Shown here one piece after another: positions 18,272-48,111 of a DNA stretch of 64,000 bases. The notes under the pieces are model-generated. The model had not been told where the DNA came from. It ran no database searches and saw only the letters and a list, made by a program, of their open reading frames with translations. Numbering within the stretch: position 1 is the first letter of the stretch; each line of letters opens with the position of its first letter. Both the position numbers and the translations under genes were made by a program. The DNA comes from an uncultured Planctomycetales bacterium (GTDB lineage: Bacteria; Omnitrophota; Gorgyraeia; Zapsychrales; JANLHA01), in contig CAYJXI010000002.1 of assembly GCA_964374105.1 (NCBI GenBank), positions 57,730 to 121,729 of the forward strand. The letters are read 5' to 3'.

Positions 18272-20689
18272 ATGAAGTACGGGCATTTCTCCAAAGACGG
18301 ACTTGAATACATCATCACTGATCCTAATACTCCTCGCCCTTGGATCAATTATCTGACTAACGAACAATATTGCTGTATTATCTCGCAATGCGCTGGTGGT
18401 TATAGTTTTTATAAAGATTGTCGAACGAATCGGATCACGCGGTGGCTTCCGGAAAATTGGCATTTTGACCGACCAGGGAAATATCTTTTTATCCGCGATA
18501 AAAATAAAGTTTGGTCTTTAACTTACCAACCTCTTCGCGTCAAGCCGAAGTTTTTTCAATGCCGTCATGGACTAGGTTACACGGTTATTGAATCTCTAAA
18601 TCAGGGAGTAAAATCCAAGGTCACTTATTTTGTCCCCCCCAAGGATGATTGTGAAGTTTGGCTTGTGGAATTGACTAATACAACCAAAAAAGAGAGGGCC
18701 CTTGAGATTTATCCTTATGTGGAATTCCTTATTGGCGATTATCAGGAGGAACTCCGTTATCGCAATATCATGAATCTTTACAACCGTGTTTGGTTTGACA
18801 AATCCCGTCAGGCTGTCTTTGCCAAAAAGACCGCCATGTGGCAAGGGATGAATATCCAGCCTTTTGACACCTTGGTTTTTTTTGCTTCTTCCTTAGTGGT
18901 GAAAGGATGTTGCACTCATAAAGATACCTTTTTGGGAAGATATAATACTGAGGAAAAACCGGAAAGTATATTTCAGGGGAAATTCAAAAATTTCCTTTTG
19001 TGTTCGGGAGAAGAGGGAATCGGATCCTTTAAACACATTGTTCGTCTTAACCCCAGCGATACAAAAGAATTTACGGTGATCCTAGGGCAAACCACGGGAA
19101 TACCGGAAATTGCCAAGATCTTAACAAAATATAGGGATGTGAAGAATGCCAAAAAGGAGCTTACAAATACAAAAGAGCTTTGGCGTAAAAGGATTTTGGA
19201 TAATATCATGATTGATACCCCGGATAAAGATTTTAATTCGTTATACAATATTTGGGTAAAGTATCAAGTTTATATGTGTAATCTTTGGTCACGTTCTCCC
19301 AGTTATTATCATGAAGGTTCCGGAGGCAGGGGTTATCGAGATTCAGCCCAAGATTTAGAAGCGATTGTCTCCATCAATCCAAAATTGACTCGTCAAAAAA
19401 TTTTAAAAATTGCCTCTTTGATCCGACGGGATGGCACCTCGGCTCCAGGCTGGTCGGATACCTCCGGCCCATATAAACACCGTCCCAATAAAGATCATCC
19501 GATTTGGCTTACCGCTACTGTCAGTGCTTATATCAAAGAGACCGGAGACAAGGACGTTTTGTTTGAGTACGCCCCTTATTTAAAAGACCATTGGCGAGGA
19601 GGCTGGGAGATGGATCCAAATTATAAAGGAGGAAGCCAAACGGATGGGGAAGGGACGCTTTTGGAGCATTTAGAAAAAAATTTACAATTTTGTTTTAATG
19701 ATGTGGGGGAAAAAGGATTTCCTCGTATTGGCCATGCCGATTGGAATGATGCCATTGATGCGGCAGGGATTCGCCATAAAGGAGAAAGTGTTTGGTTAGC
19801 CCAGGCCTTGGTTCGGTCATTGAAAATATTGGCAGAAATTTTTGATTTGATTGGGAATGAAAAAAAGAAAACGGAATACCTGCAAATGGCTAAGACCATG
19901 GATGAACGCATCAACTCCATTGCCTGGGATGGGGAATGGTATACCCGAGGTTATGATGACGATGGGCTGGCTTATGGGAGCAAACAGGATAAAGAAGGAA
20001 AGATTTTCTTAAATACTCAGGCTTGGGCCATTTTAGCGGGGGTGGCTAGGGGAGAGAGATTAAAAACTGTCATCCAATCGGTTGATCAGTATCTGAATGG
20101 TCCTCACGGTTTGGCTTTATTTTATCCCGCCTATTCTTCTTGGGTTAAACGGTTAGGCCGCATCAGTATGTTCTCGGAAGGAACAAAAGAAAACGCTGCT
20201 GTTTTCTGCCATGCCGCTACATTTATGACAGTAGCTTTGGCGATGAGTGGCTATGGCGATAAGGCTCATGAGGCTATGCGCAAAATTATGCCCAATGCCC
20301 AAAAAGATATGGAAATTTATAAAACCGAACCCTATGTCTTTGCCGAATATCTTGTAGGGCCTCAGAATCCTTATCGATATGGAGAGGGGGCCTTTACTTG
20401 GATCACCGGTTCCTCGGGGTGGCAATTTATGTTGGCCACCGAATGGATTTTAGGTGCTAGACGAGATTACCAAGGATTAAGGATCGATCCTTGCATCCCT
20501 AAGAAGTGGAAAAAATGTTTTATCCGACGTCCGTTTCGCGGGGATATTTATGATATTGAGATTACGAATCCTTTTGGTAAGGAACACGGCGTTAAGCAAG
20601 TCTTCATCGATGGGAAAGAAATCGATGGGGATCTCATTGTTCCTTTTCAAGATGGGAGGATTCATCGAGTCAAAGTCATCATGGGTTGA
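18272..20689 (+). CDS. GH94 family glycoside phosphorylase (cellobiose / cellodextrin / chitobiose phosphorylase-like)
   Basis: 805 aa. The N-terminus MKYGHFSKDGLEYIITDPNTPRPWINYLTN matches the conserved start of cellobiose phosphorylases. Confidence 0.8.
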   Translation: MKYGHFSKDGLEYIITDPNTPRPWINYLTNEQYCCIISQCAGGYSFYKDCRTNRITRWLPENWHFDRPGKYLFIRDKNKVWSLTYQPLRVKPKFFQCRHGLGYTVIESLNQGVKSKVTYFVPPKDDCEVWLVELTNTTKKERALEIYPYVEFLIGDYQEELRYRNIMNLYNRVWFDKSRQAVFAKKTAMWQGMNIQPFDTLVFFASSLVVKGCCTHKDTFLGRYNTEEKPESIFQGKFKNFLLCSGEEGIGSFKHIVRLNPSDTKEFTVILGQTTGIPEIAKILTKYRDVKNAKKELTNTKELWRKRILDNIMIDTPDKDFNSLYNIWVKYQVYMCNLWSRSPSYYHEGSGGRGYRDSAQDLEAIVSINPKLTRQKILKIASLIRRDGTSAPGWSDTSGPYKHRPNKDHPIWLTATVSAYIKETGDKDVLFEYAPYLKDHWRGGWEMDPNYKGGSQTDGEGTLLEHLEKNLQFCFNDVGEKGFPRIGHADWNDAIDAAGIRHKGESVWLAQALVRSLKILAEIFDLIGNEKKKTEYLQMAKTMDERINSIAWDGEWYTRGYDDDGLAYGSKQDKEGKIFLNTQAWAILAGVARGERLKTVIQSVDQYLNGPHGLALFYPAYSSWVKRLGRISMFSEGTKENAAVFCHAATFMTVALAMSGYGDKAHEAMRKIMPNAQKDMEIYKTEPYVFAEYLVGPQNPYRYGEGAFTWITGSSGWQFMLATEWILGARRDYQGLRIDPCIPKKWKKCFIRRPFRGDIYDIEITNPFGKEHGVKQVFIDGKEIDGDLIVPFQDGRIHRVKVIMG

Positions 20690-20896: not shown

Positions 20897-22204
20897 ATGA
20901 ACATAAATAAAAAAATTTTTCTTACCATCCAATTCTTCCTGTTATCCCTTCTTCTTTTCTTTCCATTAGGATGTTTCAACAGAGTAAAAAATCCGAATAC
21001 CCTTGTCGTATGGCATTGGATGACGGATCGTCATGAGGTCTTTGAAACATTAGCAGAAAAATACGAAAAAGAAACTGGTAATAAAATTATTTTTGAACTC
21101 TATGCGCCTTCCGATGTTTACTCACAGAAAGTGGTTGCTGCTGCTCAGGCAAAAATTTTACCCGATATCTTTGGGATCTTGGATAAAAAGTCAATTGTCG
21201 CCTCTTTCATTGAAAGCGGGTTTGTAGCGGATTTGTCCGAAGAGTTCAAAAAAGATGATGCGGCTTGGGAGAAAACTTTCTTCCCTAAGGCTTTGGCGGT
21301 CAATCGCTTTGAGGAAGGCAACTCCTATCATATCAAACCCGGCATTTATGGAGTTCCCATTGATGTAACAAATATTCAAATGCTTTATAACAAAAAGTTA
21401 TTGAAGAAAGCAGGTATTGACCAACCTCCAAAAACATTTGCGGAATTACTTGAGGCGAGCGAGGCTCTCAAACGCGTTGGGATAGCAGGAATTGTTTCAG
21501 GCTGGGGGGAACTTTGGATGGCAGAGTGTTTCGCCTCAAATTATGCCTTTAACATCATGGGAGAAGAAAAAGTGATGGCCACATACCGAGGGGAAATCCC
21601 CTACACTGATCCGGATTGGATCAAAGTTTTTGATATATTCGCCCAGCTGAGAGACAAAGGAGCTTTGGCAGAAGGGATTGTGACAAAAGCAAATAAATAT
21701 GCGGAACAAGATTTTGCCTTAGAGCGAGCTGCGTTTGCCTTTAATGGTTCCTGGGGTGTGAATGAATATCATAAAAGGAATCCGGAATTAGAGTATGGGG
21801 CCATGCTCCCACCTGCGATAAATGACAAATTACCGATGAAAATATGGGGGGGAGCTGGGTCATCATTTAAAGTTAATAATCATTCAAAGAATAAGGACAA
21901 GGCTATTGCTTTTTTAAAATGGTTAACGGCCAAAGAACAACAGGTCTTTCTAGCTCAGCAGACAAAAAATTTGCCCTCGAATAGAGATGCTTTAGCTTCT
22001 ATCCCTAAGATACTTTCAGAATTTGCCATGGTCATGGATCATACAACACATCCTACGATCTGGCCCATTAATGAAGATGCCCTTGTGACCGAGGCTTTTG
22101 ATAAAGGGCTGCAAGCCATTATGATAGGGGAAATGACCCCTCAAGAAGTTGCCCAAGAGGTGCAAGGAGTTAAGAAACGTCAGTTGGGAAAGACCAAAAG
22201 GTGA
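20897..22204 (+). CDS. ABC transporter extracellular solute-binding protein (carbohydrate, family 1)
   Basis: 435 aa with an N-terminal signal/lipobox-like sequence (LLLFFPLGCF) and a sugar-SBP fold. Two MalF/MalG-type permeases follow. Confidence 0.8.
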   Translation: MNINKKIFLTIQFFLLSLLLFFPLGCFNRVKNPNTLVVWHWMTDRHEVFETLAEKYEKETGNKIIFELYAPSDVYSQKVVAAAQAKILPDIFGILDKKSIVASFIESGFVADLSEEFKKDDAAWEKTFFPKALAVNRFEEGNSYHIKPGIYGVPIDVTNIQMLYNKKLLKKAGIDQPPKTFAELLEASEALKRVGIAGIVSGWGELWMAECFASNYAFNIMGEEKVMATYRGEIPYTDPDWIKVFDIFAQLRDKGALAEGIVTKANKYAEQDFALERAAFAFNGSWGVNEYHKRNPELEYGAMLPPAINDKLPMKIWGGAGSSFKVNNHSKNKDKAIAFLKWLTAKEQQVFLAQQTKNLPSNRDALASIPKILSEFAMVMDHTTHPTIWPINEDALVTEAFDKGLQAIMIGEMTPQEVAQEVQGVKKRQLGKTKR

Positions 22205-22218
22205 TAAAAACGGTTAGT

Positions 22219-22251
22219 CAGTAGGGGCGACCCGGCGGGTCGCCCCTACTT
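22219..22251 (+). terminator. Intra-operon hairpin (partial terminator) between the SBP gene and the permease genes
   Basis: agtaggggcgacccggcgggtcgcccctact forms a perfect 13-bp stem with a short T tract. Confidence 0.5.
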
Positions 22252-22262
22252 TAGGGATTATC

Positions 22263-23189
22263 ATGGAAGGTTATAAAACTCAAAGGTCTTTGTCGGCAAA
22301 GTTAAAAGATAAAACCGAAAATTTTTTTTTCATTGCCCCCGCTGTCGTTATCTTCTCAATTTTTTATGTTTATCCTTTCATCAATATCTTCCATTTATCT
22401 CTTTTTGAATGGAATGGAATCAGTCCAAGCCGAGAATTTGTCGGTTTAGATAATTTTAAAGAATTGATGTATGATAAGGTGTGGTGGTCATCCATGGGGC
22501 ATGCGGCCTATATCACCCTTATCGCGCTTACGTTTCAAAATGCCCTGGCCTTTGCCTTGGCACTTGCTTGTGACCGAGAAATCCGGCTTAAAAAATTTTA
22601 TCGAGTTGTTTTTTTTATTCCACCTGTTTTATCTGAGATCGTTATCGGGTTAATTTGGCAGTGGATCCTATATTCGGGAATTCACGATGGAGAATATATA
22701 GGATTATTAAATTATTTTCTCGATAAGGCAGGATTGCATCATTTGGCGCATAATTGGTTATCGGACCCTAAGACGGCTTTGACGTGTATTGCGGTTGTTC
22801 ACAGTTGGAAGGGATTCGGTTGGGGATTTATCATTTTATTGGCGGGATTGCAGACAATTGATCGACAATTGTATGAAGCCGCTCGCGTGGATGGAGCGGG
22901 AAGTTGGAATATATTCTTGAATGTGACTATCCCCTTGATGCTGCCGGTGATTGTCGTTGTTGTTATTTTAACAATTTTAGGATCGATGCAAGTGTTTGTT
23001 CTTATTCTCTCCATGGTAGGACAAGGTTTGGTTTACCATACTGAGGTGCCGGTGACAAGGATTCTGGCTTCCATGATGGGAACAAATCGTTTTGGTTATG
23101 CGTGTGCCCAGGGGGTAGTTTTTGGATTGATTTTGGTCGTTGTCTCTTTCACGCTCAAGCTTTTATCGAATAAAATGAAACAGGCCTAA
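22263..23189 (+). CDS. Sugar ABC transporter permease (MalF/UgpA-like)
   Basis: The EAA-loop region is EAARVDGAGSWNIFLNVTIPL. Six TM helices are predicted. Confidence 0.85.
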   Translation: MEGYKTQRSLSAKLKDKTENFFFIAPAVVIFSIFYVYPFINIFHLSLFEWNGISPSREFVGLDNFKELMYDKVWWSSMGHAAYITLIALTFQNALAFALALACDREIRLKKFYRVVFFIPPVLSEIVIGLIWQWILYSGIHDGEYIGLLNYFLDKAGLHHLAHNWLSDPKTALTCIAVVHSWKGFGWGFIILLAGLQTIDRQLYEAARVDGAGSWNIFLNVTIPLMLPVIVVVVILTILGSMQVFVLILSMVGQGLVYHTEVPVTRILASMMGTNRFGYACAQGVVFGLILVVVSFTLKLLSNKMKQA

Positions 23190-23280
23190 AAGCCTTCAGC
23201 CATCAGTTTTCAGTTATCAGAAAGAAGATAAAGCTTATGATTAACTGAGAGCTGATGACTGAAAGCTGAAAACTCAAATT

Positions 23281-24123
23281 ATGATCGAACGCTATAAAAT
23301 TATTCGTATCTTCAAATCGGTTGTCACCCATTTGTTATTGGGGAGTGTCACCTTGACGTGTTTATTGCCATTTTTTTGGATGGTAAGGTGTGCGTTGATG
23401 AGTGAAGATACGATTTTTACGGATAAATCTTTGATTCCTTCCCAATTGCATTTTGAAAATTTTTACTTGGCTTGGACCAAAGGAAACTTTGGAATTTATT
23501 TTTTGAATAGTGTGATTTATACGGCTACGGTCGTCATGGGTATTATTTTGATTTCCTCTTTAGCCGCCTTTGCTTTTTCCCGATTGAAATTCCCTGGGAG
23601 AAATTTATTCTATTTTGTGTTTGTGGCGGCGATGATGATCCCCTTGCCAGGAAGTTTTGTCCCTCTGTATGTGCTTATGAATAAATTAGGATTGGTGAAT
23701 AATCCGGTTGGATACATCATTTGTATGATCAATGTGGGATTGTCTTTGAGCATATTGCTTCTTAAAACATTTTTTGACAAAATGCCCTTGGATCTAGAAG
23801 ACGCCGCCAGAATTGACGGATGTTCCAAATTAGGGATCTGGTGGCATGTGGCCTTGCCCCTCGCTCGGCCGGCCATTGCGGTCATAGCTATCTTTAATTC
23901 CCTCAATGTTTGGAATGAGTACATCCTTGCTATGCTTTTATTGAATGATAAAAATTTAATGCCGCTCCAAAGGGGGTTGATGGTCTTTCAGGGACAACAT
24001 AGTGTTGATTATCATCTGTTGTTGGCGGGATTGACGATTACAGCCATTCCTATAATTATCATATATTTATTTATGCAAAAACATATTATTAAAGGGCTTT
24101 CCTCGGGTGCTATTGTAGGATAG
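23281..24123 (+). CDS. Sugar ABC transporter permease (MalG/UgpE-like)
   Basis: The EAA-loop region is EDAARIDGCSKLGIWWHVALPLARPA. Confidence 0.85.
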   Translation: MIERYKIIRIFKSVVTHLLLGSVTLTCLLPFFWMVRCALMSEDTIFTDKSLIPSQLHFENFYLAWTKGNFGIYFLNSVIYTATVVMGIILISSLAAFAFSRLKFPGRNLFYFVFVAAMMIPLPGSFVPLYVLMNKLGLVNNPVGYIICMINVGLSLSILLLKTFFDKMPLDLEDAARIDGCSKLGIWWHVALPLARPAIAVIAIFNSLNVWNEYILAMLLLNDKNLMPLQRGLMVFQGQHSVDYHLLLAGLTITAIPIIIIYLFMQKHIIKGLSSGAIVG

Positions 24124-24162: not shown

Positions 24163-26586
24163 ATGAAGGATAGAGTGGTGAAATTCAAAATTCGATTCTT
24201 ATTAATTGGTGCTTGCCTTCCCGGGTTCTTACTGCAATCTGCCCTCCTTTCCTTTTCTCAAACAGAAAAGGATGTTCAATCAGCAGAAACTCCCGAACCT
24301 TCTGTTGAAGTCAACGAAACCACAATTCCTCCAGTGGAGAGTTCATCCAAACCGCCAGACGTGCCTTCCAAAGAGCTTGTCGGTCGAGCGTGGGAGGCCT
24401 CCAGCCAAGGCGACCTTAAAAAACTTGACTTTTTAGTGAATGAGTGTTTAACCCAATATGAAAGCCAAGCCAGAAGACTGCATGCTCAATTGAATGATTT
24501 CCCGGCGCGCGATAAGATTGAAGAATACCGGGTCATGAATGATGTGGCGACAATCCTCTTTGTTCAAGGGGAGGCCCTGATGAATTTTGGGAAAACAGAA
24601 GAGGCCATGGTTGTTTTTAAGAAAATTATTGATGAGTACAAATGGTCGCAGGCCTGGGATCCTCGGGGATGGTATTGGTCCATTGCCGAAAAAAGTCAAG
24701 CAAGTATCAATGTGATAACAGGCAATATCCCCGATGAAGAACCCGATAAAATTGAAGAACGCATAAAGACATTACCCAATTTGTTCACCAAGGGAAAAGA
24801 AAGTATTATTAATTATTTAAGATATGGTAACTTTTTTGAGGTTGGAACGCAGAATTATCGTTATGAGATCAAGGATCCCCAAGGCCTTTCTGCGGCTGTG
24901 GGAGAGGGGATTTATCCGAATACAGGATCGGTATTAAAAAATCCGGGTTACAAAAAGGCCCATGAAGAAGGGCGTCTGGGAGGGAGTCATTGGGATTTTG
25001 TGCACAGTGATGATCTGGAAGCCGCCTTTTACAAATGGGCGACAGCTCCGGAGCCTTGGGGGGTAAAGCTTTTTTATATTGGGATGATTTTTGAGAAGGC
25101 CAAAATGTATTTAGAGGCCATCAAGGCTTATCAGTCAATTGTTGTGCATTTTCCCCAATCGGTGGGATGGACCTATTGGCAGACTCCCTGGTATCCTGCC
25201 CAGGCAGCCATTGCTAAGATTAAACACATCATCCGCAGTCATCCGGAATTAAACCTCAAGGCCAAATGGATGAAAGTGGAGATAAAAAATGGGTTTGATA
25301 ATAATATCAGAAATGATATTGTCGTGACTTATCCTGGGGTGATCAAAAAGAAATCCGTTTGGGATCATCTGCAAGATAAGCTACCCGCGGCAAGATCCCA
25401 AGTGCAATTAGGCAAAATCAAAAAAAAGGTTGGTGAGGGAAAAGTCCAACTTCTTCAGTACGACAATGGTCACTGGCAATTGTTAGTCGAAGGAAAACCG
25501 TTCCTTATAAGAGGGATGACCTATCATCCCACTAAGGTTGGCCAAAGCCCGGATAAGGGAACTTTAGTCAGTTGGATGGATGTGGATATAAATAAAAATG
25601 GCCTTGCCGATGGGCCCTATGATTCTTGGGTGGATAAAAATAAAAACCATCAACAAGACCCGGATGAATCAGTCGTAGGAGACTTTCGATTGATGAAAGA
25701 ATTAGGGGTAAATACCCTTCGGGAATATCATCAGCCTTTCAAATTGAATAAAGATTTCTTAAGAAAGATGCATAAAGAATATGGATTTTATGTGATGTTA
25801 GGAGATTATTTAGGAAAATACACTTTGGGATCAGGGGCATCGTGGTTTGAAGGGACTGATTATGAAAATCCCGAACACCAAAAAAATATGATGGAAGCGG
25901 TTAAGAACATGGTTATGGAATTCAAAGACGAACCATATATTTTGCTTTGGATTTTAGGGAATGAAAATAATTATGGAGTAGCCTGTAATGCGGATCAAAA
26001 GCCCGAAGCCTATTTTAAGTTTGTCAATGAGGTTGCCAAAATGATGAAATCCATTGATCCCCATCATCCCATTGCCCTGTGTAACGGAGATACGTTATAT
26101 TTGGATGTGTTTGCGAAATATGCCACGGAAATTGATGTCTATGCGGCTAACGTCTATCGAGGAGATTATGGGTTTGGTTCCTTTTGGGAACAGGTTTCGG
26201 ATGCCTCTGGGAGGCCGGCCTTTATCACGGAATATGGAAGCCCGGCCTATGCCAGACATTTAGCGCTCGAGGAAGCAGAAGAAGCCCAGGCTAATTATCA
26301 TCGGGGAAATTGGCTAGATATTGAGTCCAATGCGGTGGGACAAAAAGAAGGAGTTGGAAATGCCTTGGGAGGGGTACTGTTTGAATGGGTCGATGAATGG
26401 TGGAAAAATTATGAGCCGTTTTATCATGATAAGAAATCCGATGCGATTGGTCCTTTCCCAGGAGGATATTATTATGAAGAATGGTTCGGGATCACCAGTC
26501 AAGGCAAAGGTAATCACAGCCCTTTTTTAAGACAGTTAAGAAAGAGTTATTTTACTTATAGAGAAATGTGGAATAAAGATAGGTAG
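24163..26586 (+). CDS. Secreted GH2-like TIM-barrel glycoside hydrolase with a novel N-terminal ~110-aa domain
   Basis: It has a signal peptide. The N-terminal domain is shared with ORF 26971-27831. The central region carries LacZ-like motifs (VNTLREYHQP like NAVRCSHYP; ILLWILGNENNYG like IIWSLGNESG). Confidence 0.5.
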   Translation: MKDRVVKFKIRFLLIGACLPGFLLQSALLSFSQTEKDVQSAETPEPSVEVNETTIPPVESSSKPPDVPSKELVGRAWEASSQGDLKKLDFLVNECLTQYESQARRLHAQLNDFPARDKIEEYRVMNDVATILFVQGEALMNFGKTEEAMVVFKKIIDEYKWSQAWDPRGWYWSIAEKSQASINVITGNIPDEEPDKIEERIKTLPNLFTKGKESIINYLRYGNFFEVGTQNYRYEIKDPQGLSAAVGEGIYPNTGSVLKNPGYKKAHEEGRLGGSHWDFVHSDDLEAAFYKWATAPEPWGVKLFYIGMIFEKAKMYLEAIKAYQSIVVHFPQSVGWTYWQTPWYPAQAAIAKIKHIIRSHPELNLKAKWMKVEIKNGFDNNIRNDIVVTYPGVIKKKSVWDHLQDKLPAARSQVQLGKIKKKVGEGKVQLLQYDNGHWQLLVEGKPFLIRGMTYHPTKVGQSPDKGTLVSWMDVDINKNGLADGPYDSWVDKNKNHQQDPDESVVGDFRLMKELGVNTLREYHQPFKLNKDFLRKMHKEYGFYVMLGDYLGKYTLGSGASWFEGTDYENPEHQKNMMEAVKNMVMEFKDEPYILLWILGNENNYGVACNADQKPEAYFKFVNEVAKMMKSIDPHHPIALCNGDTLYLDVFAKYATEIDVYAANVYRGDYGFGSFWEQVSDASGRPAFITEYGSPAYARHLALEEAEEAQANYHRGNWLDIESNAVGQKEGVGNALGGVLFEWVDEWWKNYEPFYHDKKSDAIGPFPGGYYYEEWFGITSQGKGNHSPFLRQLRKSYFTYREMWNKDR

Positions 26587-26970
26587 CTGATGGGCAGGCA
26601 TAATTTCAATAACTCAAATCGTATCAGAAATAAAACTCTCTAGAAACCAAAGGGTTAGAAAGTTTAAGAGTTAGAATTATGATTTAAAAATCATCCTAGA
26701 TCCGGTGGCCGGGGCCAGGGTAAATTTAATTTTGTCGAAATGGAAAAAAAATGTTAAACTTTTATAGCGAGCAAGTCAGGAAGTATATCGAAATTAACCA
26801 GAGGGGAGGTGTCGTGAAGTCATTAAAAAGGGAGAAATCTATAAATTCAATTGTATTTTCAAAGAAACTTCCGCAAAACATTCAAGGGTTAAGATAATTT
26901 AGAGATAAGCGTTTCATTTCACTAGAGAAAAGAAGTAAAATCTTCTTATAAAAATAGGAGGTAAGTTGCA

Positions 26971-27831
26971 ATGGCAAAGAAAGTTGTAGGCAAAGTTTTG
27001 ATTTTAATCTTGGCATCTGTTCTTTTTTGGCCTAGGCAGGCTTCAGCATACAATTATGGTGATTATCGTTCCGTCACCTTAGCGACTAAGGCATGGGAAG
27101 CATTAGCCAAGAAAGATCTAGAAGCGGTCTTAGCCTTTAGCAATAAATGCATTGAATTATATGCTGATCAGGCAAAGAAGATGCAAGAAAGCCTTAGCGA
27201 ATATCCTTCTGGTAGCAATGAAGAAATTTTTGCTTATTGGGCTTTGAATGATGTAGCTACCAGCTTGTTTATTCAAGGGGAGGCCTACCGTAATGCTAAT
27301 ATGCAGGAAGAGGCTAAAACAGTCTATCAAAGGATTATTGAGGAATTCAGTTTTGGCCAGTGTTGGGATAATGGGGGTTGGTTCTGGAAACCCGCTGAGG
27401 CGGCTAAGGAAAAAGTCGCCATGATTGAATCTGGCTCCAATTTGGATTTCGGTGATTATAAATCTACTACCCTTACCGTCAAGGCTTGGGAGGCCCTCGC
27501 TAGCGAAGACCTAGATGCGGTCTTGGCTTATGCGAATAAATGCTTGGAATTGTATGAAAATAAAGCTAAAGAAATGCAGAATTCTTTGACAGAATATCCT
27601 TGGGAGTCTAAAGAAAAAATCTTTAGCTATTGGGCTCTCAATGATGTTGGGACATCTCTATTTATTAAAGGCGAGGCCTTAAAACACGCTGGAAAAGTCG
27701 AAGAAGCTAAAAAAGCCTATCAGAGATTGATTGGTGAATACTATTATGCCCAGTGCTGGGATCCGCAAGGCTGGTTTTGGAAACCTTCTGAAGCTGCACA
27801 GCAAAAATTGGATGAATTATCAGAGACTTAA
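26971..27831 (+). CDS. Secreted protein made of two tandem copies of the novel ~110-aa YWALNDV...QCWD..GWFWKP domain
   Basis: A signal peptide is present. The two internal repeats are about 55% identical to each other and clearly related to the N-terminal domain of the upstream hydrolase. Confidence 0.5.
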   Translation: MAKKVVGKVLILILASVLFWPRQASAYNYGDYRSVTLATKAWEALAKKDLEAVLAFSNKCIELYADQAKKMQESLSEYPSGSNEEIFAYWALNDVATSLFIQGEAYRNANMQEEAKTVYQRIIEEFSFGQCWDNGGWFWKPAEAAKEKVAMIESGSNLDFGDYKSTTLTVKAWEALASEDLDAVLAYANKCLELYENKAKEMQNSLTEYPWESKEKIFSYWALNDVGTSLFIKGEALKHAGKVEEAKKAYQRLIGEYYYAQCWDPQGWFWKPSEAAQQKLDELSET

Positions 27832-27964: not shown

Positions 27965-28606
27965 ATGAGATTCATTATCTATTTTTTATTCCTTACTGTT
28001 GTAATGGGCTGTCAGAAAACAATTGCCGATAACCCTTCACCATCCGATCCCAATCAAAAGATTCAAGGGGTGGCTGAGGATCCTGCTTTTAAATCTTTTA
28101 TGCTTTATAAAGATAAAGGTTCACGTGATAATCATTTTATTCCTTCGGGATTTATGCCAAACGGAAAGTGTCTTACCCTTGAGGATGCCTGGAAGGAAGG
28201 GTGTTTTGATGGCAGTACTTGTATCGAGATTATTTATGATAGAGAGTGTTCACTCAAGGATCAAAAGTGGGCAGGAATCTATTGGTTAAATCCAGCAAAT
28301 AATTGGGGTAACCAAAAAGGAGGTTTTAATCTTTCGGGTGCCAAGAAATTGACATTCTGGGCCAAAGGGAAAAAAGGGGGGGAAAGAATCGAAGAATTTA
28401 AGATCGGAGGAATCACGGGTGATTATCCTGATACCGATATGGCCATGATTGGTCCTGTTGTCTTAACCAATGAATGGCAGCAATATACCATTGACTTACG
28501 GGGTAAAGATTTATCTTATATTAGTGGAGGGTTTTCCTGGGCTACCAATGTGGATGTCAATTCGGAAAGCTGTACTTTTTATTTGGATAATATTCAATAC
28601 GAATAA
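27965..28606 (+). CDS. Lipoprotein, possibly carbohydrate-binding (beta-sandwich)
   Basis: It has a lipobox (VVMGC). The mature part is rich in aromatic residues and Gly, and it sits in a glycan-utilisation context. Confidence 0.35.
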   Translation: MRFIIYFLFLTVVMGCQKTIADNPSPSDPNQKIQGVAEDPAFKSFMLYKDKGSRDNHFIPSGFMPNGKCLTLEDAWKEGCFDGSTCIEIIYDRECSLKDQKWAGIYWLNPANNWGNQKGGFNLSGAKKLTFWAKGKKGGERIEEFKIGGITGDYPDTDMAMIGPVVLTNEWQQYTIDLRGKDLSYISGGFSWATNVDVNSESCTFYLDNIQYE

Positions 28607-28711
28607 TAGTTTTCAAAAAAGTAATTCATTATAAATACTCTTCTGTAACTCTCCTGTAAATCTCGGGACACGCGTTCACTTAAGAACGGTGTCCTTTTTT
28701 ATTTTACCCCG

Positions 28712-28830
28712 ATGCCAGAAAGCCATTCATCCATACCCGTAACGGACATGGCTTTCTGGGTCGGGGTTCCGACCCCCGAAGGGGCGTCGGAACCCCGAAA
28801 GAAGAGATGTCACCCCGCCATGGCGGGGTG
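28712..28830. repeat. REP/MITE-like GC-rich palindromic element
   Basis: The flanking inverted repeat is ccagaaagccat / atggctttctgg. Inner palindromes ggggttccgacccc, gtcggaaccccg and accccgccatggcggggt are shared with the folC insert. Confidence 0.5.
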
Positions 28831-29038
28831 GAGCTTCACAAGTTGCATGGGGGGGATTGATGCATAAAATCAAAATTCTTCAAATCATATTTTTCATCGG
28901 TGGCTTAAGATTGATAAAGAGAACGCCTGAAACACGAGAATATATATGAATTTATTTACTTTTTTCTTGTATTGCCTTTGATACTTTGTTATATTCATTA
29001 CGTTATATTTTATTTTTAAAATAAATAAAAGGGGGGAT

Positions 29039-30340
29039 ATGTCCAAAGTCGCAAGACAGATTGTTTTGATTTTAGCAATTCTTGTCGTAGGTGTTTTTCT
29101 TTTTGCGGGTTATACATTAATAGAAAAACAAAGGTTAATCAAAGAGAAGGATTCATTAGAAAAACAAATTGAAGAATTCCAAAATCGAGAGAAAAAATAC
29201 GTTGTTGATAATAAAGCCTTGCAAGACAAACTGAACGATGTGGAAAAGGCCAAGGCCAAGATGGAGGAGCGCTTGAAGACAGTGGATGCCGATATGGAGG
29301 CCTTAAATACGAAAATCAAACAGTTAACCCAAGAGCGTGATGAATGGCAAAAACGAGTTGATGAAATTAAAAAAGAAAGAGACGATCTGTTAGTCAAAGT
29401 TCAAGAGAAACCCGAACCACAGATCGTTTACAAATATATCGAGAAAGAGGCCACTGAGGAAGAAAAAGAAGGGCAAGTTCAACCCCCGGAGGGTCAAGGA
29501 AAGGAAGACGGCGTTTATAAAATCGAATCTGTTACTGAGGAAGATGAATCCTATTGGGCAGATGTCCTTAAGGGAAAGGCCGCTTTAGCATTGGAAGTCG
29601 AAAAGTTGACAGAAGAATTATCCAAGAGTTCGGTTGAGGTCGTTGAATTAAAGAAACAGAACTCTGATTTACAATTAGAATTGAGCAGTGTTAAGAATCA
29701 GAAAGAGGGTATTGAAAGAGATATCAAATATGGAAAGGATTTATCGGATACTCTCTCTTTAGAGTTGGCCCGTTCCAAGAATGACAACAAGTTTTTAAAT
29801 AATCGAATTGGCAAATTGAATGAAGAGAATAATTACCTTAGAGAGCAAATGAAACAATTGACTTCTACCAAGATCGCCTTGGAAAAAAGCATTGTGCGTT
29901 TACAAGATGAGAAAAAGGAAGTTGAGAAGAAACTCCTAGAAACAGAAAATGTGATCCAAAGTCGGATTGATGAGATTTGGCAGATCAAAGAGAGTTTAGA
30001 TAAAAGCTTTCAAACGACAAAACCGGGGATGACAAATGAAATTGAACTCCCACCCATTATTGTGAGTGCGCAAGAATCGGGAGGGGAATCAACTGATGAA
30101 TCAAGGAAAGAGACAGGTCCGGGTTTTCAGGGTAATGTTGTTAGCGTTAATGAAGAGAACAATTTTGTCATTCTCGATCTGGGAGAGGCAGAGGGCATAA
30201 AAATCGGGGATGCGTTAAGTGTCTATCGTGGTACGGAATTCGTGGCGGCCTTAGAAGTCATTCAAGTCCGCAAGGACATTGCCGCAGCGGATATTAAAAA
30301 TAAAGTTGCCAAAATTTTGATTGGAGATGAAGTTCGATAA
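29039..30340 (+). CDS. Membrane-anchored long coiled-coil protein with a small C-terminal beta domain
   Basis: It has an N-terminal TM helix and about 300 aa of heptad-rich sequence rich in E, K, L and Q. An acidic linker is followed by a C-terminal ~70-aa G.VV...ILDLG...G.KIGD domain, which may be SAF/FlgA-like. Confidence 0.45.
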   Translation: MSKVARQIVLILAILVVGVFLFAGYTLIEKQRLIKEKDSLEKQIEEFQNREKKYVVDNKALQDKLNDVEKAKAKMEERLKTVDADMEALNTKIKQLTQERDEWQKRVDEIKKERDDLLVKVQEKPEPQIVYKYIEKEATEEEKEGQVQPPEGQGKEDGVYKIESVTEEDESYWADVLKGKAALALEVEKLTEELSKSSVEVVELKKQNSDLQLELSSVKNQKEGIERDIKYGKDLSDTLSLELARSKNDNKFLNNRIGKLNEENNYLREQMKQLTSTKIALEKSIVRLQDEKKEVEKKLLETENVIQSRIDEIWQIKESLDKSFQTTKPGMTNEIELPPIIVSAQESGGESTDESRKETGPGFQGNVVSVNEENNFVILDLGEAEGIKIGDALSVYRGTEFVAALEVIQVRKDIAAADIKNKVAKILIGDEVR

Positions 30341-30379: not shown

Positions 30380-31417
30380 TTGCCCATTTCCTATCGAGGT
30401 GAATTCACATTGATCAAAAATAAGAAAGTCAGAATTGAAGATGTTGCCCAGAGGGCTAAAGTCTCTATTACCACTGTCTCGCGTGTGATCAATAATATCC
30501 CGACAGTCAGTAAAAAAAATCAGGCCCGCGTGGAGGAGGCTATTGCTTTTTTTAAATATAAGCCCAATGTCAGTGCTCAGCGGTTGGCACGCGGGCTTAA
30601 TAATGCGGTGGGGCTTGTCATGCCAGGATATCCGGGGATTTTTCACTCCTTTTATGCCATCGAGTTGATTCGCGGGGTAGGACATGCTTGTGAAACTTTG
30701 AAGTTAGACCTTGTTTTTCATATCACCAATGGGGCCAATCCTATCAATTCCAACAGCGTGGGAGGTGTCATCTTTGCAGATATCATCGATAATAGGCAAC
30801 AAGTCATTTCTGCCATAGAACATGGGGTTCCCTGCATGGTCATTAACAATATCGTTGATGATTTAGAGGTGAATTATATCGGAATTGATAATTTTACTGG
30901 TGGTAATATGGCGACGGATTATCTGGTCAGCCTGGGTCACCACCGGATTGCTACGGTCACCGGGAATTTGCAAACTCAGGCTGGGAAACACCGATTTGAA
31001 GGTTATAAGCAGGCTTTCAATAAGTATAAAATTGATATCAACAATGATTATATCATTGAAGGCGATTATTCCCGTCGAACTGCCCGACTGGGGGCAGAAA
31101 AATTATTATCCCTCCCGAAACCTCCTACCGCAATTTTTGCCGCTAGCGACGATATGGCTTTGGAAATCATCACGGTGATTATGGAAAAAGGGTTCAAAGT
31201 CCCTGAAGATATCTCGGTGATTGGTTTTGATGATAATCCCTCCGCCATTTATGGCCCCATTGCCTTAACGACCGTCAGACAACCCTTGTTTAAAATGGGT
31301 GAGGATGCCGTTAAGTATTTAAACGCTATTGTGACCGAAAAAAAGAGATCACCAGTTCAGATGGTCTTAACGCCTCAACTCGTGGTCAGAGATTCGTGTA
31401 CGACTCCTAAGAAATAA
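30380..31417 (+). CDS. LacI family transcriptional regulator
   Basis: The HTH reads VRIEDVAQRAKVSITTVSRVINN, followed by a periplasmic-binding-protein-like domain. The true start is probably the TTG near 30410. Confidence 0.85.
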   Translation: MPISYRGEFTLIKNKKVRIEDVAQRAKVSITTVSRVINNIPTVSKKNQARVEEAIAFFKYKPNVSAQRLARGLNNAVGLVMPGYPGIFHSFYAIELIRGVGHACETLKLDLVFHITNGANPINSNSVGGVIFADIIDNRQQVISAIEHGVPCMVINNIVDDLEVNYIGIDNFTGGNMATDYLVSLGHHRIATVTGNLQTQAGKHRFEGYKQAFNKYKIDINNDYIIEGDYSRRTARLGAEKLLSLPKPPTAIFAASDDMALEIITVIMEKGFKVPEDISVIGFDDNPSAIYGPIALTTVRQPLFKMGEDAVKYLNAIVTEKKRSPVQMVLTPQLVVRDSCTTPKK

Positions 31418-47160: not shown

Positions 47161-48111
47161 ATGTTCCGACGTAGTCTTTTAACTTTAATTTTTATTTTAT
47201 TATTTAATACCTTATCTTATGCCTTCTGGGTTTGGACTCCTGAGACAAACCAATGGGTTAATCCCAAATATGCGGTCAAGCAAACCCCTCAGGATCAACT
47301 GAACTTTGCCAAAGAATTTTACCAGGCCAAAGACTATAAAAAGGCCATCAACGAGTTCCAAAAATTGATCAAACATTACCCCCGGGCGCGGGAAGCGGCT
47401 GAGGCTCAGTTTTATATTGCCCGCTCTTATGAAGAGCAGGGAGAACTGTTTGCGGCCTTCAAGAATTATCAGACCGTTGTTGAGAAATACCCTTTCAGTG
47501 AGCGATCCTCAGAAATTATTAAAAGACAGTATGAGGTGGGAAATCAATTTTTAGAAGGAAAAGAAAGAAGGAATAAGTTCATGTCCACGGTGGCAGGGGA
47601 AGATTATAATATGATTGAGATTTTTCGCACCGTCATCAAGAATGCCCCTTACGGAGAATTTGCCGCCCCCTCCCAATACAAGATTGGACTTTATCTTCAA
47701 GAAAAACAATTGTTTCAAGAGGCCAGGGACGAATTTGAGAAGACGATCAATGATTATCCGGATTCAGAATGGGCCAAGGCGGCGAAATATCAGATAGCCC
47801 TTTCGGATGCCAAGCGCTCCGCCGAGGCGCAATATGATCAAAAGGTGACAAATTCTGCCATCGAGGAGTTCAAAGACTTTGTTAAGGACAATCCTGAAGT
47901 AGAATTATCCAAAGAAGCCAGAAATCAGATTTATCAGTTAAGAATCAAAGAGGCGGAGAATAATTATCTGATCGCGAAATTCTACGAAAAACAAAAACAA
48001 TATGATGCAGCCAAGGTCTATTACACGACCATAGTCGAAAAATATAAAAATACGCCTTGGGCAGCCAAGGCCTTGGAAAAGTTGCGTCAACTTAACCGCA
48101 ATAAGAAATAA
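47161..48111 (+). CDS. bamD: Outer-membrane protein assembly factor BamD-like TPR lipoprotein
   Basis: It has a signal peptide and TPR repeats (YQAKDYKKAINEFQKLIKHYP...). Confidence 0.65.
   Translation: MFRRSLLTLIFILLFNTLSYAFWVWTPETNQWVNPKYAVKQTPQDQLNFAKEFYQAKDYKKAINEFQKLIKHYPRAREAAEAQFYIARSYEEQGELFAAFKNYQTVVEKYPFSERSSEIIKRQYEVGNQFLEGKERRNKFMSTVAGEDYNMIEIFRTVIKNAPYGEFAAPSQYKIGLYLQEKQLFQEARDEFEKTINDYPDSEWAKAAKYQIALSDAKRSAEAQYDQKVTNSAIEEFKDFVKDNPEVELSKEARNQIYQLRIKEAENNYLIAKFYEKQKQYDAAKVYYTTIVEKYKNTPWAAKALEKLRQLNRNKK

Follow-up and report, generated by a model that had tools for sequence, protein, structure and literature searches.

The window analyzed here is a 64,000-nt stretch of DNA from an uncultured Planctomycetales bacterium, and its genes were taken from the open-reading-frame (ORF) list of the window. 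Two successive genes of a glycan-utilization operon in this window encode an 807-aa exported hydrolase and a 286-aa exported protein, which share a repeated module (Table 1). The unit is ~120 aa long, and three full copies are present: residues 69–186 of the hydrolase, and residues 32–154 (copy A) and 163–286 (copy B) of the 286-aa protein, with a repeat period of ~131 aa. The three copies align almost without gaps and have 36 invariant columns. In BLASTP, the hydrolase copy matched the 286-aa protein with 38% identity (E = 4e-31 and 1e-28). The global identities were 38.1% and 39.0% between the hydrolase copy and each of the other copies and 61.0% between copies A and B. The Smith–Waterman score of the local alignment was 239, compared with 29.5 ± 5.1 in 500 shuffles (z = 41), which rules out chance similarity. 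A hidden Markov model (HMM) built from the copies returned residues 69–185 of the hydrolase and residues 32–154 and 163–283 of the 286-aa protein. Copies A and B, 61% identical as protein, are 69% identical as DNA and have been conserved individually in different species; an artifact of recent DNA duplication was thus ruled out. An earlier note on this DNA, made from the letters alone, had described a discrete, helical, Trp-rich domain of ~110 aa with three copies in two exported proteins of one glycan-utilization operon. The BLASTP, HMM, and shuffle results bear out the repeat and its character, but the unit is ~120 aa in length, and the count of three full copies has to be supplemented by a degenerate half copy. 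This fourth copy corresponds to the C-terminal half of the module and lies at residues ~300–359 of the hydrolase. It aligned with module positions 65–121 in hmmsearch (E = 0.006) and over 57 columns in hhalign (E = 4e-5, probability 70%), and Pfam TPR_6 matched at residues 303–333. No further copies were found in the window by a six-frame scan. A generic tetratricopeptide repeat (TPR) protein encoded at 47161–48111 matched the module profile marginally (E = 0.04) and lies outside the module family.

The fold of the module was examined using AlphaFold2 (AF2) models, in which the 286-aa protein was predicted from an 86-sequence alignment. In copy A, a helix pair (34–46/50–73) is followed by a loop with a short helix (83–87), a second helix pair (90–108/112–125), a β-hairpin (strands 131–132/138–139), and a capping helix (141–154). 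Copy B repeats this order with helices 165–177, 181–204, 214–218, 221–239, and 243–256, the hairpin, and helix 272–285. The hydrolase copy consists of helices 69–81, 85–108, 116–141, and 145–158, a hairpin (163–166/170–173), and helix 174–186. The half module retains the TPR–hairpin–helix part of the pattern (helices 299–312 and 316–329, strands 335–336/342–343, and helix 345–359). The second helix pair, a textbook TPR, is the part matched by Pfam TPR_6, TPR_2, and TPR_8, and the helix-turn-helix pairs are stacked like those of solved TPR domains, as expected for a member of the TPR superfamily. The hairpin is formed by the QCWDxxGWFWKP motif. Based on these models, the predicted fold is a known one, namely, a short TPR_6-type domain with two TPR helix pairs, a Trp-rich β-hairpin replacing the next helix, and a capping helix.

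The TPR_6 model (PF13174) scored 44.7 bits with the 286-aa protein and 34.1 bits with the 807-aa protein, both above the cut-off of 26.3 bits, and was found in 34 of 42 isolated modules. It covers ~28 residues, positions 66–93 of 121. No Pfam or NCBIfam model covers the first helix pair, the 74–89 loop, the hairpin, or the capping helix. The NCBIfam matches of the module proteins were all to YbgF (TIGR02795) and far below threshold (17.5 and 16.9 bits; cut-off, 90.1 bits), and membership in the YbgF/CpoB family was therefore ruled out. A search of Protein Data Bank (PDB) sequences with the 286-aa protein and with the family profile gave nothing significant, the best match being the designed TPR protein CTPR3Y3 (E = 0.2–0.6). 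No carbohydrate-binding module (CBM) or SusD model was among the Pfam matches at E ≤ 1. The public annotation of the homologs is already "tetratricopeptide repeat protein." The earlier note regarded the domain as novel and did not recognize it as TPR. The novelty stands insofar as no existing model shares the boundaries of the module (the TPR models account for ~28 of its 121 residues), but the fold is TPR and not new. What is new is the unit of ~120 aa, marked by a long helix and a Trp hairpin, which constitutes a distinct, widespread TPR subfamily for which no model exists.

Across 226 modules from other proteins, the conserved positions in the numbering of the 286-aa protein are S34, L37, A41, W42, A68, Q72, L75, L92, N93, D94, V95, T97, I101, A115, D133, G136, and W139. 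The signature read in the earlier note (AW..A, LNDVxT..F, and QCWDxxGWFWKP) coincides with this conserved part. The conserved residues outside the core are aromatic or polar (Trp, Gln, Asn, Asp, and Thr). When the module is aligned to the TPR consensus, W42 would correspond to position 9 in the first repeat, and T97 and I101 to positions 2 and 6 in the second; in ligand-binding TPRs, these positions line the concave groove, and they probably face it here as well. Where the next helix A would be, the module has the hairpin, and the groove face would be continued by the Trp and Asp residues of this hairpin. The hairpin motif W-D-(N/P)-x-G-W-F/Y-W is encoded at 27358–27390, 27751–27783, and 24649–24681, with an NG turn in copy A, and its spacing of Trp, four-residue turn, and Trp is that of the designed "tryptophan zipper" hairpins. 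Two cysteines, C60 in the long helix (27148–27150, NKC) and C131 at the start of the hairpin (27361–27363, QCW), are near-invariant in the stand-alone copies and have equivalents in copy B, and the hydrolase copy retains the first of them only. A periplasmic disulfide linking the hairpin to the long helix is possible.

An AGGAGG ribosome-binding site precedes the ATG of the gene for the 286-aa protein by 8 nt. The N terminus of the protein has the features of a signal peptide, with a KK n-region, a hydrophobic core, and A-S-A before the predicted cleavage site; in the AF2 model, it forms a helix (2–18) followed by a disordered stretch (19–24). The protein has at least 2150 homologs, of which the best 120 are two-module (~285 aa) and three-module (~415 aa) forms. 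The two-module homologs are 65–75% identical to it, and all named ones in this best 120 are from metagenome-assembled genomes of Omnitrophota. The mean column identity of the stand-alone protein is 70%, compared with 58% for the hydrolase.

The hydrolase is composed, from the N terminus, of a signal peptide, a disordered linker, the module, a helical region with the half module, a β-sandwich, and a TIM barrel resembling glycoside hydrolase (GH) family GH158. In its AF2 model, residues 3–24 form a helix, and residues 28–61 have a predicted local distance difference test (pLDDT) value below 50. At least 1361 homologs exist, and the 119 closest ones listed are 59–71% identical. D166, G169, and W172 of the hairpin are invariant in 91 orthologs. 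A sequence peculiar to this copy is strictly conserved in the capping helix (WSVAEKSQASIDV), with K177 and S181 being invariant.

The catalytic domain was compared with known structures by sequence profile and by fold. The profile matched the PDB sequences of two GH158 enzymes, 9oro (E = 9e-15) and BuGH158 (6pal, E = 9e-14). In Foldseek, the top matches were also GH158 (E = 9e-13, target-based template modeling score (TMt) 0.54–0.56), followed by GH2 and GH72; the similarity to GH158 extends over ~130–180 residues by sequence and amounts to ~18% identity in the structural alignment. A true GH158 encoded on another contig of the survey described below (L091) is 28% identical to the catalytic domain over 191 aa (E = 2e-17). 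The GNENNYG motif (G599–G605, with N600 and E601 encoded at 25960–25965) and E690 of the ITEYG motif (26230–26232) are invariant in 91 sequences. By analogy with clan GH-A enzymes, the two invariant glutamates are probably the catalytic pair, consisting of the acid/base in the NE motif and the nucleophile. The hydrolase was called GH2-like in the earlier note, but its nearest solved relatives by both methods are GH158 β-1,3-glucanases. Of the GH2 architecture, just the barrel model (PF02836) matches, and the N-terminal part consists of TPR-like helices in the AF2 model. The NCBIfam β-galactosidase and β-glucuronidase models gave 25–30 bits against cut-offs of 544–1284 bits. With these equivalog scores far below threshold and the barrel model alone matching, membership in GH2 was ruled out.

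Table 1. Features of the module-encoding operon in the window. pTM, predicted template modeling score; ABC, ATP-binding cassette.
Feature	Position (nt)	Strand	Basis
Cytoplasmic GH94 disaccharide phosphorylase	18272..20689	+	Pfam GH94, E = 1e-104; same position in L001 and L002
Sugar ABC importer: lipoprotein solute-binding protein 20897–22204; permeases 22263–23189 and 23281–24123	20897..24123	+	ORFs; Pfam SBP_bac_1 and BPD_transp_1 on orthologs
807-aa exported hydrolase	24163..26586	+	ORF; Pfam Glyco_hydro_2_C (E = 5e-16) and TPR_6; AF2 pLDDT 85.7, pTM 0.82
Signal peptide (~1–31) and low-complexity Pro/Ser/Glu linker (~28–61) of the hydrolase	24163..24345	+	Sequence MKDRVVKFKIRFLLIGACLPGFLLQSALLSFS; predicted cleavage
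Hydrolase module copy, residues 69–186	24367..24720	+	HMM 69–185, E = 6e-63; BLASTP E = 4e-31 versus 286-aa protein
Trp-rich β-hairpin QAWDPRGWYWS, residues 163–173	24649..24681	+	DSSP strands 163–166 and 170–173
Degenerate half module, residues ~300–359: one TPR, hairpin GWTYWQTPWYP, capping helix	25060..25239	+	TPR_6, hmmsearch, hhalign, AF2
β-Sandwich, residues 365–453, between helical region and barrel	25255..25521	+	AF2 strands 365–375, 386–396, 419–453; no family assigned
Clan GH-A (β/α)8 catalytic domain, GH158-like	25660..26583	+	Profile versus PDB; Foldseek; invariant motifs
286-aa exported protein, two tandem modules	26971..27831	+	ORF; AF2 pLDDT 90.5, pTM 0.74
Signal peptide of the 286-aa protein, residues 1–26	26971..27048	+	From sequence; predicted cleavage ...RQASA/YNYG
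Module copy A, residues 32–154	27064..27432	+	HMM E = 1e-68; Pfam TPR_6 at 98–126
Module copy B, residues 163–286	27457..27828	+	HMM E = 3e-68; Pfam TPR_8/TPR_2 at 229–254
213-aa lipoprotein-like protein	27965..28606	+	Lipobox VVMGC; NCBIfam choice-of-anchor J, weak (E = 1.4e-4)
433-aa membrane-anchored protein: N-terminal anchor, long coiled coil, small C-terminal domain	29039..30340	+	Coiled-coil-type Pfam matches; weak FlgT_C
LacI-family regulator	30380..31417	+	Pfam LacI and Peripla_BP on orthologs

The gene order of the operon is GH94 phosphorylase, lipoprotein solute-binding protein, two permeases, hydrolase, module protein, 213-aa lipoprotein, 433-aa coiled-coil protein, LacI, and GidA, and this arrangement recurs on complete or long contigs. 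Across 48 full-length species loci, the solute-binding protein and permeases were present in 47–48, the 213-aa protein in 44, the coiled-coil protein in 40, and LacI in 39. The stand-alone module gene lies directly 3′ of the hydrolase gene in 63 of the 69 species loci that could be evaluated. The 213-aa protein had no match in Pfam or PDB. The nearest solved structure to the GH94 enzyme is cellobiose phosphorylase (3qde, E = 3e-141), its closest relatives being cellobiose and chitobiose phosphorylases, and laminaribiose phosphorylase (6ggy) is much more distant (E = 6e-42). Given the GH158-like hydrolase (β-1,3) and the cellobiose-type GH94, mixed-linkage glucan is one possibility for the substrate of the operon. 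The otherwise tight operon contains two long intergenic gaps, 26587–26970 (384 nt) and 28607–29038 (432 nt), and the gap after the hydrolase gene ranges from 29 to 409 nt in related loci. No Rfam families or tRNAs were found in the window, and the promoter and terminator scans of the window remained at the level of shuffled sequence.

The spread of the module was surveyed by searching its profile against 1.84 billion representatives. The profile matched 1760 clusters at E ≤ 1e-3 and 959 clusters at E ≤ 1e-10. Architectures were then sampled in 154 member sequences (the best 150 and four cluster mates), in which the copy number ranged from one to seven. A single module is present in 78 of them, including 62 small proteins of less than 240 aa, and several members are giant proteins. 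Every inspected member has a signal peptide, a lipoprotein signal, or a membrane anchor at the N terminus. Because of these export signals and anchors, together with the topologies of the kinase and glycosyltransferase family 2 (GT2) fusions described below, the module is assigned, from sequence features, to the extracytoplasmic side. A scan with one genome per species gave 360 confirmed stretches. The best 80 of the 360 are titled Omnitrophota or have generic titles ("uncultured Planctomycetales bacterium" and "uncultured bacterium"), and all share the operon of the window. The query consisted of the three window copies; these 80 loci all carry the hydrolase-type copy and are uninformative on other architectures.

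The coupling to β-1,3-glucanases was found in three independent forms: the GH158-like fusion of the window, a split pair with a true GH158, and a fusion to GH128. In the split pair (L091), the gene of a single-module exported protein overlaps the start of the GH158 gene by 17 nt. The GH158 has its own signal peptide and matches GH158(Pro) with E = 5e-86 and BuGH158 with E = 3e-66. This module/GH158 cassette recurs in otherwise unrelated neighborhoods (L091, 8001–9972; L093, 15–1866; and L094, 1877–3734, the last in L094/L095). The split-pair contigs have a G+C content of 59–63%, compared with 33–56% in the Omnitrophota loci, and L091 carries PF07596/N_methyl genes, which are typical of Planctomycetota-like genomes. 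The G+C content and these neighbors hint that the split-pair contigs are from outside Omnitrophota. In the GH128 fusion (P0280), two modules are joined to the catalytic domain (6uaq, E = 1.5e-26).

Other fusions involve glycan-related or sensing proteins. In a GT2 synthase, modules are inserted between transmembrane helices 1 and 2. In Ser/Thr kinase fusions, the kinase is followed by a transmembrane helix and two modules outside the membrane, in the sensor position, which makes these proteins candidate glycan-sensing or wall-sensing kinases. The kinase genes (P0392, L005 8001–10109; and P0375) adjoin a response-regulator/CheB-like gene and occur on about 25 contigs. The module was also found in a GH72/GH2_C-like giant protein adjoining a GH5 gene, a CHB_HEX_C_1 protein, and an RHS protein. 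These fusions and the many single-module proteins do not agree with the suggestion in the earlier note that the domain is specific to this glycan system. A further protein search with P0396, the module protein of the L091 pair, returned mostly Omnitrophota two-module proteins with no new architectures or taxa, and Pfam scans of ten further multidomain members added nothing. The module behaves as a self-contained TPR module with a Trp hairpin that is recurrently coupled to GH158- and GH128-type β-glucanases, and it is this combination, not the fold, that is new.

Here, we tentatively propose that the module is a non-catalytic accessory of β-glucan-active enzymes, with a putative PgaA-like TPR groove that binds a β-glucan chain, the glucanase, or both; we put this proposal at slightly less than an even chance. 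From the fold, family, export signals, operon conservation, fusions, and split pairs described above, the proposal predicts a groove location, a ligand, and complex formation. The concave face would be lined by W42, Q72, N93, D94, T97, D133, and W139 (286-aa numbering), together with the hairpin Trp, and would form a groove holding a β-glucan chain, most likely β-1,3 or mixed-linkage. The module would also stay in physical association with a GH158-type glucanase, as a fused domain or as a separate subunit. In the operon of the window, the fused copy would hold the chain in place for the GH158-like barrel, and the two-module protein would be a multivalent partner that handles glycan in the periplasm or at the cell surface. 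Uptake of the oligosaccharides released in this way would be through the ABC importer, with phosphorolysis by the GH94 enzyme as the next step. A polysaccharide-binding groove is regarded as the best explanation for the conserved Trp/Asn/Asp/Gln/Thr surface of an extracytoplasmic module that accompanies glucanases, a synthase, and sensor kinases. The occurrence of fused and split forms and the high pTM values suggest contact with the enzyme as well. In the sense of the CAZy definition of a CBM, it is a discrete fold appended to carbohydrate-active enzymes (GH158-like, GH128, GH72-like, and GT2). A more specific version holds that these proteins constitute a putative family of TPR-based, α-helical CBMs for β-1,3 or mixed-linkage glucans, used as an appendage or partner of GH158 and GH128, as a kinase sensor, and in glucan synthesis; this version is possible but doubtful. 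A binding or scaffolding role, as suggested in the earlier note, fits the fusion and neighborhood evidence, although it is putative. An inhibitor or immunity role was ruled out, as the module is fused to the enzyme.

Several points weigh against a glucan-binding groove. TPR domains normally bind proteins or peptides. That the conserved residues cluster on one face is a deduction from the TPR register, and the Trp hairpin, which resembles a tryptophan zipper, may be a self-stabilizing structural element instead of, or besides, a ligand site. The identity of the glycan is uncertain because the nearest relatives of the GH94 enzyme are cellobiose and chitobiose phosphorylases and not the GH94 laminaribiose phosphorylase. 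Two single-module genes lie outside any glycan-catabolic context, one among phosphate transporter, porin, and two-component genes (L089) and the other near GT2 and NDP-sugar genes (L090). The sample of fusions outside the main family is small, with one cluster for each.

The classical role of TPRs offers the main rival explanation, in which the module is a pure protein–protein adaptor that binds a peptide or domain of envelope partners, such as the 213-aa and 433-aa proteins, the glucanase, or other modules. The stand-alone protein with two to three modules would then be a small scaffold on which the hydrolase is assembled and held at the cell envelope. The overlapping split genes and the fusion elsewhere form a Rosetta-stone pattern pointing to physical association with the glucanase, and the pTM values of the 807-aa and 286-aa models suggest that the module is packed in a fixed manner against its neighbors. 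The high conservation of the stand-alone protein relative to the hydrolase, and its co-conservation with two uncharacterized envelope proteins, also suit an adaptor. The structural relatives all bind proteins, and YbgF/CpoB and BamD are TPR proteins of the envelope that can be named as adaptor-like analogs. In Fibrobacter succinogenes, TPR proteins have been proposed to organize cellulases on the cell by bridging cellulases, fibro-slime proteins, and OmpA (PMC6851124). However, the fusion partners are diverse (GH158-like, GH128, GT2, CHB_HEX_C_1, and kinases), and their common factor is polysaccharide, with no obvious shared protein. The sensor position in the kinases suggests a diffusible or polymeric ligand, and the conserved surface-type residues (Trp, Asp, Asn, and Gln) are of the kind typically found in sugar-binding sites. 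A role confined to protein–protein contacts seems to us possible, if rather questionable.

Two further explanations concern the nature of the ligand and whether there is one. The module may recognize cell-wall material, such as peptidoglycan or a different envelope glycan, belonging to the organism itself, to a host, or to prey, and target enzymes and sensors to it, as PASTA or Sel1-like repeat (SLR)/TPR wall-binding proteins do; the operon would then serve envelope remodeling or predation, not nutritional use of β-glucan. The kinases that carry modules outside the cell are similar to PASTA-type wall sensors, RHS and giant proteins also contain the module, and the family is concentrated in Omnitrophota (best 80 genomic loci), a phylum for which a host-dependent or predatory lifestyle and giant proteins rich in TPRs are discussed in the literature (10.1101/2023.11.21.568195). 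The hallmarks of the operon (LacI, ABC sugar importer, and cytoplasmic GH94) are, in contrast, those of sugar catabolism, and the partner hydrolases belong to β-1,3-glucanase families and are neither muramidases nor amidases; we consider wall recognition unlikely. Alternatively, the module could be a ligand-free structural or folding element within GH158-type enzymes, such as a lid or stabilizing subunit, and the stand-alone forms could be duplicated remnants. The strictly conserved capping helix of the hydrolase copy, with its invariant K177 and S181, suggests a fixed interdomain contact, and the pTM of the 807-aa model is high. Against this, the stand-alone proteins show higher conservation than the hydrolase and are found in 63 of 69 species loci, and proteins with one to seven modules and many fusions unrelated to GH158 exist; we consider this explanation very improbable.

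If the module binds glucan chains, as we tentatively favor, a helical TPR scaffold would join the CBM repertoire. Such binding would explain ~1760 sequence clusters labeled merely as "tetratricopeptide repeat protein" and would give a handle on β-glucan acquisition by Omnitrophota, an uncultured and possibly host-dependent phylum. Its operon, with a GH158-like enzyme, an ABC importer, and GH94, is conserved and is not of the type of a polysaccharide utilization locus. If the TPR-based CBM reading is correct, TPR grooves would be a general glycan-recognition device beyond the SusD and exopolysaccharide-export contexts, whereas an adaptor function would define a small system of scaffolds for glycanases bound to the envelope. 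Under both readings, a profile built for the ~120-aa unit would improve annotation, and the module–GH158 gene pair is a compact experimental system.

One of the closest known counterparts of the module is the C-terminal TPR domain of the YbgF/CpoB family (PDB 2xev; TPR_6 and TIGR02795), which has an N-terminal coiled-coil domain and lies in the tol-pal gene neighborhood. The identity is 17%, and the score is 17 bits against a cut-off of 90. In contrast to YbgF/CpoB, the module starts right after the signal peptide or linker without an N-terminal coiled-coil, and its neighbors are GH94, the ABC importer, and LacI in place of the tol-pal context. The long helix (50–73), the 74–89 loop, and the Trp-rich hairpin are specific to the module family, as are the tandem independent units and the fusions to glycoside hydrolases.

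Known CBMs almost all have β-rich folds, and SusD-like proteins use TPR-like helices as a scaffold. The window module has no Pfam match to either group, and its carbohydrate binding is putative. In Bacteroides, β(1,3)-glucan utilization involves a GH158 that works with separate glycan-binding proteins, the surface glycan-binding proteins SGBP-A/SusD-like and SGBP-B (PMC7157763). The two systems are alike in having noncatalytic exported proteins or modules adjoining or fused to a GH158-type glucanase in a regulated uptake locus, but the window has an ABC importer and LacI, whereas the Bacteroides loci have SusC/D and a hybrid two-component sensor. The catalytic domain, with BuGH158 (6pal) and GH158(Pro) (9oro) as its top profile and fold matches, keeps the NE and E motifs, and the hydrolase has an N-terminal extension of ~430 residues (module, half module, and β-sandwich) that is absent from the characterized GH158 enzymes. 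GH158(Pro) releases disaccharides processively (PMC13195107). By analogy, release of disaccharides by the GH158-like enzyme of the window would suit the importer and the GH94 disaccharide phosphorylase.

The TPR module of PgaA binds poly-N-acetylglucosamine (PNAG) in a concave groove, and it also binds the PgaB hydrolase/deacetylase and stimulates or modulates it (PMC9384988). PgaA-type proteins, to which AlgK, BcsC, and PelB are related, differ from the window module in having no detectable sequence relationship with it and in being part of outer-membrane export porins in biosynthetic operons, whereas the module, whose function is putative, is found in a catabolic operon, fused to or beside β-1,3-glucanases, and has a β-hairpin. 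One member of the module family is fused to a GT2 synthase. The PgaA module (residues 220–342) is likewise ~120 aa long and periplasmic, with three TPRs and a groove conserved on its concave side, and the logic proposed here for the window module is shared with it. We propose PgaA as the closest worked-out analogy for the handling of a glycan chain combined with the partnering of an enzyme.

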